Shown one piece after another: positions 6,170 to 62,150 of a stretch of DNA of 64,000 nucleotides. How positions within the stretch are numbered: the first letter of the stretch is position 1; each line of letters begins with the position of its first letter. This stretch comes from Alphaproteobacteria bacterium (GTDB lineage: Bacteria > Pseudomonadota > Alphaproteobacteria > RF32 > CAG-239). Where the stretch lies: NCBI GenBank assembly GCA_017484225.1, contig JAFUTN010000008.1, positions 7,440 through 71,439 of the forward strand. Reading direction: 5' to 3'. A program made the position numbers and the translations under genes. The notes beneath the pieces were generated by a model. That model made no database searches. It saw only the letters and a program-made list of their open reading frames with translations, and was not told where the DNA came from.

Positions 6170-6175
6170 TCCGAC

Positions 6176-6397
6176 AGAGTGAGCTAAAAACTCACTTCAG
6201 GGCGTGACAACCCTTTGCAAAAAATCAGTCGTTATAAAACGACTTTTAATTGTATGCCGATTTCGCATGTTGTTGTGTGCGGATGTCGGTGTTATAAGGC
6301 TTAAAGCACGAAATCGCCGAGCCGTTTTGATTTTTTGCACGGTTTGTCAACATCCGCCCACCATTTTAGGTGGCTTTTTTGTTAACTTTTTTAATTA
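6176..6397 (+). promoter_or_regulatory. Structured 5' leader RNA L1 (candidate attenuator / riboswitch-like element) of LRR paralog 1
   Basis: Aligns end to end with the leader of the 15220..15969 paralog, with compensatory stem changes, a 45-nt near-identical core (6279..6323) and a 3' terminator. The start is estimated from the promoter. Confidence 0.55.
6356..6380 (+). terminator. Intrinsic terminator inside leader L1
   Basis: GCCCACC-ATTTTA-GGTGGC followed by TTTTTT, located about 20-35 nt upstream of the candidate start codons. Confidence 0.55.
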
Positions 6398-60354: not shown

Positions 60355-60365
60355 GAGTTTTGGTT

Positions 60366-60896
60366 ATGGCTGCTCGTTGGTATGTTGTTAATGTTTATTC
60401 CGGTTCGGAGAAAAAAGTTGCCGAGTCTATTCGTGAACAGGCAATGCTCAAAAAAATGGATGACAGAATTTTAGAGGTTTTGGTTCCGACCGAAAATGTT
60501 GTTGAAATCCGTAAGGGTGCAAAGGTTAATGCCGAGCGCAAGTTCTTTCCGGGATATATTTTGGTTAAGATGGAAATGTCTGACGAATGTTGGTTGGTTA
60601 TCAAAAACACTCCGCGTGTAAGCGGTTTTTTGGGTAGCCGCAATAAGCCGCAACCGATTAGTGAGGCAGAAGTTCAAAAAATTATGGCTCAAATTACCGA
60701 AGGTATTGAACGTCCGCAAGTTGAAGTCAGCTTTGAAACAGGTGAACAAATTCGTGTTACGGATGGTCCGTTTGCCAGCTTTGTCGGAATTGTTGAAGAT
60801 ATTGATACCGAAAAATCTCGTCTTAAAGTGTCGGTTTCTATTTTCGGCCGCTATACTCCGGTTGAGTTGGAATTTTCGCAAGTAGAAAAGATTTAA
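60366..60896 (+). CDS. nusG: Transcription termination/antitermination protein NusG
   Basis: WYVVNVYSGSEKKV N-terminus and a KOW domain (GEQIRVTDGPFASFVGIVEDID). Trimmed to the ATG at 60366. Confidence 0.95.
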   Translation: MAARWYVVNVYSGSEKKVAESIREQAMLKKMDDRILEVLVPTENVVEIRKGAKVNAERKFFPGYILVKMEMSDECWLVIKNTPRVSGFLGSRNKPQPISEAEVQKIMAQITEGIERPQVEVSFETGEQIRVTDGPFASFVGIVEDIDTEKSRLKVSVSIFGRYTPVELEFSQVEKI

Positions 60897-60922
60897 AAAA
60901 AGTTTTTATCAAACATCCTTGA

Positions 60923-60953
60923 AGAGAACATCATTAAGATGTTCTCTTTTTTT
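60923..60953 (+). terminator. Intrinsic terminator after nusG
   Basis: AGAGAACAT-CATTAAG-ATGTTCTCT followed by TTTTTTT. Confidence 0.8.
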
Positions 60954-60964
60954 GCAATATTTAA

Positions 60965-60992
60965 TTGCAAAACGGATTAAATCTGTTATGAT
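60965..60992 (+). promoter_or_regulatory. Sigma70-like promoter of leader L4
   Basis: TTGCAA (60965..60970), N16, TATGAT (60987..60992). Confidence 0.45.
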
Positions 60993-60999
60993 TGATTCA

Positions 61000-61280
61000 T
61001 GGTGAAAGAAATTTTTACCAAGAACCCGAAAAAGGGGTTCGGAGCTTTGAACGGCTTTTATAGTGAGCTGTATCGTTAATGATACTGTTAAGTCAGTAAG
61101 ATTTGCTGGCATATTCCCTGATTATAGGAAAATCTATGGTCGGGGTGCTTGTGGTGTATGTCTAGGCATAGTAGCTAAAGACCACAGGAGTCATTTCTCA
61201 CTATATGATTGTTCAACTCTCCGACCGTCCTTTTGAGGCGGATTTTTTATTTTTAAAATTTTGCTTTATTGGAGAAAAAG
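61000..61280 (+). promoter_or_regulatory. Structured 5' leader RNA L4 of LRR paralog 4
   Basis: Hairpin GAACCC-GAAAAA-GGGGTTC running into TTCGGAGCTTTGAACGGC (the same 5' module as L3 and L1). C-box CTCCGACC plus terminator at the 3' end. Confidence 0.5.
61225..61248 (+). terminator. Short intrinsic terminator inside leader L4
   Basis: CCGTCC-TTTTGA-GGCGG (one bulge), then A and TTTTTT. Confidence 0.45.
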
Positions 61281-62150
61281 ATGAAAAAAATTGTGCTGAT
61301 GTTGGGGATAGTGTTGTGCTGCAGGGTTGAGTATGTAAAAGCCGCATGTACTGCAAATTCTGATGAATTTGGAAACAAAAAGTGTCTCACATGGAATCCG
61401 GGGGTGGAAAATAATTGCGGCAGAGGTTGCACATATACTTATGAAAACGGAACGGTAAATGTTGTTGCCTCCGGAAGTTCTCCGAAAATTTCCGAAGGAA
61501 TGTTTTCTCCCCTGTATTATGATGGCGGAATGCCGGTAGAAATTGAACATATTGTTGTTGATGGTAATTTTGAAACAATAGGAAAACATGCTTTTGCCGT
61601 GGCTGGGGCAACAATTTCGGGGAAAAACGGCGAGTTGGTGCTGAATAAATCAGGCTGGAATGCATTTGGAAATGAAACAAACGTTTTGCAAGGAGATATT
61701 GTCATATCAGATTCTGCCGGAACTATGGGACATGGTTATTTGGTTAATACGGTTTTGGACGGCACACTCATAATTCCGGAAAATATAACTTTTTCTTCCG
61801 GACCGTTAAGAGATTTGACTGTAACGAAAAACGGAAAAATATATTGTGCCGTAAAAAATTGTGAGGAGAGATTGCTGGAATCTTGTAATTCTCTGCCACA
61901 GGAAAATGCTAATGGTTATGATTTACGTTCCAGATGTAATAATTCAGTTCAAAAAATCATTGATGCCGGAAAGATAGAAGCATTTCCGGATGGATGTATA
62001 CGAATGTCCGGTGTCGGTTGTCAACAATGTGCCAACAAAAATTATGCATTGGAATACGGCACTTGTTACCGCAAACGCTACACTTTACCGGAAGCGGATG
62101 CGGCAACCAGCAACGATAATGAAAACATGATTGAATGGATTTTTGAGTAA
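61281..62150 (+). CDS. Secreted LRR-like / Cys-rich protein, IEWIFE-tail family, paralog 4
   Basis: Trimmed to the ATG at 61281 (MKKIVLMLGIVL, SD GGAGAAAAAG). CTYTYENGTVNVVASGS, Cys-rich spacer, tail RYTLPEADAATSNDNENMIEWIFE. Confidence 0.8.
   Translation: MKKIVLMLGIVLCCRVEYVKAACTANSDEFGNKKCLTWNPGVENNCGRGCTYTYENGTVNVVASGSSPKISEGMFSPLYYDGGMPVEIEHIVVDGNFETIGKHAFAVAGATISGKNGELVLNKSGWNAFGNETNVLQGDIVISDSAGTMGHGYLVNTVLDGTLIIPENITFSSGPLRDLTVTKNGKIYCAVKNCEERLLESCNSLPQENANGYDLRSRCNNSVQKIIDAGKIEAFPDGCIRMSGVGCQQCANKNYALEYGTCYRKRYTLPEADAATSNDNENMIEWIFE

Follow-up and report, generated by a model that had tools for sequence, protein, structure and literature searches.

What does an RNA leader with its own promoter and its own terminator do in front of a surface-protein gene? 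The question is raised by a locus in a 64,000-nucleotide (nt) stretch of DNA from Alphaproteobacteria bacterium (assembly GCA_017484225.1, contig JAFUTN010000008.1, positions 7,440-71,439, forward strand); the whole stretch is referred to here as the window, and coordinates are positions within it. The leader, termed L4 (60965-61250), lies after nusG (60360-60896) and precedes a gene termed paralog 4. L4 is a type B member, slightly diverged, of a multi-copy leader RNA family, and we favour, with moderate confidence, the reading that it would act in cis as a transcription-attenuation leader for paralog 4. The elements of the leader, the copy-specific complementarity between them and the tight coupling of leader to gene were established across the copies described below.

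Each of the four paralogous genes in the window has a related leader upstream. An nhmmer profile seeded with these four leaders (L1-L4) and run on the genome (1.48 Mb; 96%-complete assembly) returned 99 leader copies; L4, itself one of the four seeds, was recovered with an E-value of 2.6e-43 and also fits the type B anchor parse. The family C-terminal tail is encoded by 92 genes of the genome. Given that 85 of 89 full-length copies sit at a short, fixed gap before a same-strand gene with a Shine-Dalgarno sequence, these RNAs are leaders and not free-standing RNA genes. The distance from the U run to the gene start in the 85 copies has a median of 32 nt (interquartile range 29-35, maximum 50), which leaves no space for a second promoter, and the family tail is present on 79 of the 85 gene products.

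Two leader subtypes were distinguished: type A, which includes L1 and L2 and has the core GCGGATGTCGG...AACATCCGCC, and type B, which includes L3 and L4 and has the core GGGGAG...AACTC[TC]CCGACC. The exact type B core pattern was detected in 22 of 61 genomes of the family, covering 14 of 23 genera, and a reversed-pattern control gave no match. The likeness among the window leaders that had been remarked upon in an earlier, sequence-only reading of this DNA is therefore real. L4 carries the complete type B set of elements, from promoter through terminator, together with a gene with a Shine-Dalgarno sequence within ~50 nt:

60916..60957, + strand: nusG terminator, inverted repeat GAGAACATC..GATGTTCTC and T run; self-complementary blastn match at 60922-60948
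60965..60992, + strand: leader promoter, TTGCAA, 16-nt spacer and TG-extended TATGAT; predicted start at ~60999
61000..61020, + strand: P0 hairpin, UGGUGAAA / UUUUACCA, present in the minimum free energy (MFE) structure; varies among copies, with other sequences elsewhere
61022..61040, + strand: P1 hairpin, GAACCC-GAAAAAG-GGGTTC; loop and 3' arm complementary to the terminator 5' arm and loop
61036..61044, + strand: G-box 1, GGTTCGGAG; overlaps the P1 3' arm and the P2 5' arm; core GGAG at 61041-61044
61041..61058, + strand: P2 hairpin, GGAGC / GCTTT; loop holds address a1, TTGAAC, at 61047-61052
61060..61067, + strand: address b1, ATAGTGAG; perfect 8-base pair (bp) complement of 61197-61204
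61068..61115, + strand: variable P3 region; in L4 two short hairpins, one of them GTATC/GATAC at 61071-61086
61116..61121, + strand: anti-G-box, CCCTGA; pairs with TCGGGG at 61140-61145 to give hairpin H2 (MFE structure)
61138..61147, + strand: G-box 2, GGTCGGGGTG; 5' strand of basal stem S1; GGTCGGGG at 61138-61145
61148..61188, + strand: arm S2, CTTGTGG (61148-61154) with CCACAGG (61182-61188); encloses a GTATGT..CTAAAG internal loop and a small hairpin
61189..61210, + strand: hairpin S4, AGTCAT / ATGATT; loop holds address b', CTCACTAT, at 61197-61204
61211..61216, + strand: address a', GTTCAA, directly 5' of the C-box
61217..61226, + strand: C-box, CTCTCCGACC; CTCCGACC at 61219-61226; last 2 nt can join the terminator
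61225..61248, + strand: intrinsic terminator, CCGTC / GGCGG (61225-61241), 5 bp including one G-T pair, then A and six T
61271..62150, + strand: Shine-Dalgarno GGAG and paralog 4; ATG at 61281, 289 amino acids, signal peptide, many Cys, tail ...RYTLPEADAATSNDNENMIEWIFE (...NMIEWIFE)

The promoter, P1 hairpin, G-boxes, C-box and terminator named in the sequence-only reading all lie where it had placed them, and the overlap of C-box and terminator that it described was confirmed (61219-61226 against 61225-61248). Both the -35 box and the extended -10 box are kept in ~90 aligned leader copies. The second hairpin that had been described as common to L3 and L4 exists in L4 (GTATC/GATAC, 61071-61086), but the likeness is positional only, because it falls in the variable P3 region, where most type B copies have one long hairpin. 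Paralog 4 (61281-62147) is the sole window paralogue of the four without a Pfam LRR_5 match, the signal peptide, Cys pattern and tail being retained.

Pairing between the elements was assessed by pair counts and permutation tests scripted in place of a covariance model, the leader being too long for calibration. A first set comprised 56 type B copies (26 own-genome copies and 30 of other genera in the family), from which segments were excised by conserved anchors, and a second set comprised 63 leaders from a genome-collection scan, with some genomes common to both. In the cognate test, the duplex energy of true partners was compared with that of 2000 partner permutations. In a separate column test, the percentage of paired positions in a MAFFT alignment of 54 type B copies was compared with that in 500 shuffles, none of which equalled the observed value for any of the elements given below with two percentages.

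The strongest covariation in the leader was found in two hypervariable address pairings, a1:a' and b1:b'. In L4 these are TTGAAC:GTTCAA (6 bp, perfect) and ATAGTGAG:CTCACTAT (8 bp, perfect). The 4-nt core of a was complementary in all 83 parsed own-genome copies, compared with 10% of non-cognate combinations, and the longest Watson-Crick run in b averaged 8.9 for cognate and 3.6 for non-cognate partners in the same 83 copies. Cognate z values for b1:b' were -27.9 in the first set and -28.3 in the second, and the alignment columns were 87.4% paired (50.4% when shuffled); for a1:a' the corresponding column values were 88.9 and 59.4%. The P1, core and H2/S1 sequences are common to all copies, and the addresses are private to each. 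For L4 the best non-cognate b run was 5, and its combination of a and b is absent elsewhere in the genome. In 13 leader pairs the b addresses are practically identical (runs of 8 or more both ways; for example, C37:27809-28158 and C24:4705-5054), but in no such pair is the 4-nt a core the same, where ~2 would be expected by chance. Thus, every a-plus-b combination is unique, as if the a core were swapped, or selected to differ, after duplication.

The C-box has three competing partners, namely G-box 2, the G-box 1 region and the 3' arm of the terminator. Pairing of G-box 2 with the C-box (stem S1, up to 10 bp) gave z = -7.0 in the first set, with none of 2000 permutations as good, and -5.7 in the second; its columns were 93.5% paired (89.9% shuffled). 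The upstream CCCC/CCCT box paired with G-box 2 (hairpin H2) at z = -6.4, again with no permutation of 2000 as good (columns 92.2%, shuffled 87.2%), and arm S2 at z = -12.1 with the same permutation result (columns 98.9%, shuffled 76.6%, with 83 double-change cells). At locus L036 the anti-G-box, G-box 2 and C-box are all altered jointly (CCCAG / CTGGG / CCAG). S4 carries no covariation information, since its stem never varies. P2 pairing is retained in stem variants such as GGGAT/ATCCT and GGAGT/ACTTT, with cognate z = -3.2, and its column pairing in the 54-copy alignment equalled that of shuffles.

For G-box 1, the outcome depended on the segment considered. The core GGAG:CTCC alone gave z = -2.1, with 45 of 2000 permutations as good; its columns were 94.3% paired (89.9% shuffled), and, with runs rich in G or C on both strands, a shifted register pairs nearly as well. 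The lower part of the G-box 1 pairing alone, GGTTC:GACC, gave z = +1.2, and its columns were 83% paired, the same as shuffles. When the 23 nt spanning the P1 loop, P1 3' arm and G-box 1 were tested against the 30 nt spanning the C-box, terminator 5' arm and loop, cognate z was -6.8 in the first set and -9.2 in the second, and no permutation of 2000 matched; in the other genera of the first set alone it was -5.0. Omission of G-box 1 and the C-box still left z at -6.1 and -8.5 in the first and second sets, respectively. For the lower part of the G-box 1 pairing, a cognate signal emerges only once the P1 loop and the arm and loop of the terminator are taken in. G-box 1 forms the inner part of a longer antiterminator. 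The earlier proposal that the C-box pairs with either G-box 1 or G-box 2 thus holds for both, each being copy-specific, with the G-box 1 region as part of this longer helix.

Individual copies illustrate the point. P1 and the terminator are altered together in L031, where TTAAAGGTG pairs with CACCTTTAA, and in C50_18256, where AAAAAGAGG pairs with CCTCTTTTT; in L060, GGGTAC pairs with the terminator arm TACCC. In L4, AAAAGG-GGT(T)CGGAG pairs with CTCCGACC-(GT)-CCTTTT. The P1 columns themselves were 86.5% paired (75.9% shuffled). Because P1 and the terminator co-vary across copies, P1 is effectively a decoy of the terminator hairpin, and its predicted role is that of an anti-antiterminator. P1, the antiterminator and the terminator are mutually exclusive in L4, sharing nt 61034-61044 and 61219-61234.

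The L4 transcript (60999-61250) has a predicted folding energy of -91.3 kcal/mol, compared with -60.5 ± 4.7 kcal/mol for 200 dinucleotide shuffles (z = -6.6). Its MFE structure holds P1, H2, the terminator and an extended a/b duplex closed by GGAG:CUCC, in which CUCC is 61219-61222. When GGUUCGGAG:CUCCGACC was enforced, the energy was -89.3 kcal/mol, 2 above the MFE, and P1 and the terminator dissolved into the long antiterminator. Enforcing S1 gave -72.7 kcal/mol, in a model unable to count the a and b contacts as pseudoknots. When L4 was cut at 61236, before the terminator 3' arm, the MFE structure became the antiterminator with P1 open, and in 42 of the 54 type B leaders the MFE structure of the cut transcript pairs at least 3 nt of the terminator 5' arm with the P1 region. 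By the full-length and truncated energies, the ground state is the stop fold, and the go fold is a plausible co-transcriptional intermediate.

These data are consistent with the following scheme. Since L4 has its own promoter and a weak intrinsic terminator ~30 nt before the ribosome-binding site, paralog 4 would be transcribed only by readthrough. The two private address helices would dock the 5' part of the leader RNA onto the 3' part, and pairing of the C-box would then decide the outcome, stop or go. In the stop fold, P1 and the terminator would both form as hairpins, with the C-box held either by G-box 2 in S1, a junction resembling sRNA-Xcc1/C4, or by GGAG over 4 bp. In the go fold, the docked 5'-3' duplex would zip on, such that G-box 1 with the P1 loop and 3' arm takes the C-box and the terminator 5' arm, while G-box 2 is taken up by the upstream CCCT box in hairpin H2. 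We infer that the choice of fold is regulated and is made during transcription; candidate triggers would be elongation speed or pausing, a protein on the conserved core, and temperature or ions.

A more specific form of this scheme, in which the family would be a self-addressed strand-exchange attenuator, seems rather unlikely to us. Here, P1 would be a terminator decoy lying ~200 nt upstream and delivered by the two address helices, and the 3' arm of the decoy would capture the 5' arm of the terminator. Were it true, ~100 addresses that do not cross-react would let each surface-protein gene flip independently, giving transcription-level variation of the cell surface without DNA rearrangement.

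Terminator/antiterminator/anti-antiterminator leaders are classical devices, found in riboswitch expression platforms and in the pyr/PyrR and trp leaders of Bacillus subtilis. Like these, the L4 family has four segments that pair 1:2, 2:3 or 3:4, here as P1, antiterminator and terminator, and the antiterminator sequesters the 5' arm of the terminator. Unlike them, segments 2 and 3 of the leader are ~180 nt apart and joined by private address helices, the second competitor for segment 3 is G-box 2, which has its own anti-box, and a conserved leader peptide is lacking. A 26-codon open reading frame (ORF) in L4 (60999-61079) is not conserved, other copies differing in frame or length or having no ATG. 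A ribosome-mediated (leader-peptide) attenuator was rejected because no short ORF is conserved among the leader copies compared. In L4 itself an AUG lies exactly at the predicted start (60999), arising from the P0 stem, and the ORF runs through P0, P1, P2 and b1.

Several observations weigh against the attenuation reading. The full-length stop fold is favoured by a median of 7 kcal/mol at equilibrium in the 54 type B leaders, so that readthrough needs kinetics or a factor, and neither a conserved ligand pocket nor a partner protein was identified for the leader. In L4 only 2 nt are common to S1 and the terminator, and in type A copies hardly any, so that S1 may be either a helper or a blocker. 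P1-terminator pairing in type A copies is without cognate signal (z = -1), being confined to an invariant GGGCG:CGCCC, as in L1 (window 6172-6382). Given that S1 in type A abuts rather than overlaps the terminator, the two subtypes may be wired differently. In addition, the two test sets overlap in genomes, paralogous copies are not independent, and the energy model ignores pseudoknots.

At the Rfam gathering score only three tRNAs were detected in the whole window, and L3 and L4 gave no relevant match, including to RF02221 and RF01695, at E ≤ 10; the leader family is not in Rfam. In the genome as a whole, RF02221 (sRNA-Xcc1) gave 53 full-length sub-threshold matches, with a top score of 35.6 bits (gathering score 53), and RF01695 (C4) gave 15 matches, with a top score of 29.5 bits (gathering score 45). 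The matches checked by coordinates (L1 and several type A and B copies) fall on the 3' modules of leaders, and the alignment of L1 spans positions 1-87 in both models and keeps their junction layout. In Xanthomonas campestris, sRNA-Xcc1 is a small RNA of 88 nt (PMC2996969), and Xylella genomes have up to seven homologues each (PMC12189769). As in sRNA-Xcc1, the leader 3' module has a basal stem (G-box 2:C-box), two hairpin arms and a single-stranded joining strand of ~6 nt, and a C-rich run leads into the U run. By contrast, the leader module lies within a ~250-nt leader together with an address module, an anti-G-box and the decoy hairpin P1, with a gene 32 nt downstream, whereas sRNA-Xcc1, as described, stands alone and acts in trans.

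C4 antisense RNA and the c4-a1b1 motif are listed in PMC2864571. Like C4 of phages P1 and P7, the leader 3' domain has a pair of short recognition sequences, of which one lies in a loop and the other in a joining strand; they complement two upstream sequences of the same transcript and differ among similar copies. In the phage system the antisense RNA is processed from its leader transcript by RNase P. In phages P1 and P7 the C4 recognition sequences are said to set immunity specificity, reportedly shown by Citron and Schuster in 1990. The leader differs from C4 in having an intrinsic terminator and a cognate antiterminator, and in that the genes served encode host surface proteins rather than a phage antirepressor. 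A C4-style downstream a2/b2 target over the ribosome-binding site was sought and none was found: b' scored 5.18 against its own downstream 160 nt and 5.13 against non-cognate sequences, and there is no second L4 address in the genome.

These likenesses bear on the alternative that L4 is a small-RNA gene, that is, an antisense RNA of the C4/sRNA-Xcc1 type preceded by a cis decoy (a1b1), whose ~250-nt product acts elsewhere, expression of the downstream gene being a constitutive leak. We regard this as unlikely. The end-to-end alignment of type A 3' modules with RF02221 and RF01695, with the same junction architecture, speaks for it, as do the thermodynamic preference for the stop fold and the layout of own promoter and own terminator. 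However, the b' comparison just given reveals no cognate target, and the L4 address occurs nowhere else in the genome. Moreover, the constant spacing of ~32 nt between element and gene, seen in 85 of 89 copies, points to a leader, the cognate complementarity of P1 and terminator would be without a role in a plain small RNA, and every Rfam score is below threshold, L4 itself having no match.

The non-helical core GUAUGUYCA...CUAAAG in arm S2 admits another explanation, in which it would be the aptamer of a metabolite or ion riboswitch and would set whether G-box 2 is free. The core is kept across at least 14 genera while the surrounding helices vary, although this conservation is partly built in because the search pattern itself required the core, and a terminator-based expression platform with alternative pairings would suit a riboswitch. 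Against it, types A and B differ in the core yet precede the same gene family, ~100 copies per genome before surface-protein genes are unlike any known metabolite regulon, and Rfam riboswitch matches were absent from the window and, for L4, down to E ≤ 10. A riboswitch is, on this evidence, improbable.

It is rather unlikely that a dedicated RNA-binding protein or elongation factor acts on P1 or the core and switches the whole regulon together by protein-dependent antitermination. Shared P1, core and H2/S1 sequences in combination with private addresses would fit one global factor for many leaders, but only the housekeeping NusG, and no RfaH/LoaP/UpxY-type paralogue, was found in the 96%-complete assembly, and no candidate binding protein was identified. 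In addition, the leader loop sequences presumably do not fit the ANTAR two-hexaloop signature, on our own reading made with no model search, which also counts against this explanation.

If the switch works as the attenuation reading implies, ~1.7% of a 1.5-Mb genome would be given to one RNA device, gating ~90 exported, cysteine-rich proteins, mostly of the leucine-rich repeat type, in uncultured gut and rumen Alphaproteobacteria. It would then be among the largest regulons under cis-regulatory RNA known from any one genome. A phage or integron-type antisense RNA fold (C4/Xcc1) would moreover have been rebuilt as a terminator switch, the long-range partners of which find each other via private, fast-evolving addresses.

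The sequence-only reading had further proposed a compensatory change of the G-box/C-box helix from GGGG:CCCC to GGAG:CTCC. In the first set, the third position of GGAG/GGGG and its C-box partner were A:T in 21 cases, G:C in 20, A:C in 6 and G:T in 4 (Fisher p = 1.7e-5, uncorrected for relatedness). In the wider set, the counts were A:T 23, G:C 12, A:C 11 and G:T 9, with z = -1.1. In both classes G-box 2 reads GGGG and tolerates the C-to-T change as a G-U wobble, and the A/G position of P2 lies opposite T in both variants. The change does fit with pairing. As a signal it is weak and confined to one position, and the case for the helix does not rest mainly on it.

The position of L4 had suggested that leader and paralog 4 interrupt a nusG-rplK junction, on the expectation that secE-nusG is normally followed by rplK-rplA. 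That expectation holds for Alphaproteobacteria of other families, in which nusG-rplK-rplA was contiguous in 10 of 10 genomes (one with a gap of ~960 nt), but for none of 18 same-genus genomes. In none of the 18 does rplK lie within 1.5 kb of nusG, and neither a leader nor a family gene follows nusG, the downstream genes varying (pilin-like genes and others). This is the observation that the sequence-only reading had itself named as contradicting the interruption. Since nusG and rplK are already apart in same-genus genomes without the cassette, the cassette did not split them; it sits at a gene-order break specific to this genome. In the family outside the genus, rplK lies within 1.5 kb of nusG in 11 of 27 genomes, mostly with one or more genes between, and no leader match was found at the nusG loci of these 27 genomes.

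The recombinase beyond paralog 4, described from sequence as XerC/D-type, does belong to the Xer family (316 bits to XerC). It is, however, the housekeeping XerC. The genome has just two Xer genes, and the M20-SH3-xerC block around this one is kept in five close relatives, where no nusG or cassette adjoins it. The recombinase was therefore rejected as a cassette integrase. In the present genome rplK-rplA is on contig C33, preceded by an oxidoreductase-like gene and followed by a leader-plus-tail cassette.

Insertion of leader and paralog 4 as a mobile cassette that split nusG from rplK, perhaps with the adjacent recombinase, is very improbable in the light of these arrangements. The presence of leader and gene here and their absence at this site in all relatives searched imply gain or loss as a unit, and on contig C33 rplA is immediately followed by a second cassette, both being at gene-order breaks. 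Set against this are the unlinked nusG and rplK in 18 of 18 same-genus genomes, none with a cassette there, and, in other genera of the family, loci at which the two genes are unlinked or separated by other genes without a leader match. The recombinase is XerC, one of two Xer genes, inside a conserved block, and no repeats or attachment sites were seen, no search having been aimed at them. For annotation, such cassettes are not to be read as insertions into conserved operons, given that secE-nusG-rplKA was already broken in this lineage.

Some minor observations concern the same loci and the wider distribution of the leader. At C33:25090-28586 (L001), the usual place of rplJ-rplL directly after rplA is taken by a type A leader and a tail-bearing gene; the cluster of ribosomal-protein genes is broken up, and cassettes occupy the break points. 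At least 107 stretches with the type B core were found among 185,579 species genomes, nearly all of them in metagenome-assembled genomes of uncultured gut or rumen Alphaproteobacteria. The core was also found on contigs labelled [Ruminococcus] gnavus, Eubacteriales, Gastranaerophilales and Bacteroidaceae (L134, L157, L166 and L168), labels that are probably binning or naming errors. One contig that appears mislabelled is identical to that of an alphaproteobacterial relative (G014:C9, 49,335 bases).

In most of the 11 family genomes outside the genus that keep rplK within 1.5 kb of nusG, the gap contains either a gene that we take, from our own recognition of the sequence, to be mscL-like or some other gene. 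In seven loci (L082, L083, L086, L087, L091, L079 and L093) the gene in the gap encodes ~160-180 amino acids, which we presume to be MscL with a C-terminal CxxC...CxxC zinc ribbon, and is followed by a conserved rplK promoter/leader, TTGCAAA..GTGGGAG..CCAC. In four same-genus genomes (L014, L016, L019 and L021), the 0.3-0.5 kb after nusG and before ileS consist of tandem repeats that translate to strings such as LFCTPRKKGNCVSDSF and look like a repeat array rather than a gene.

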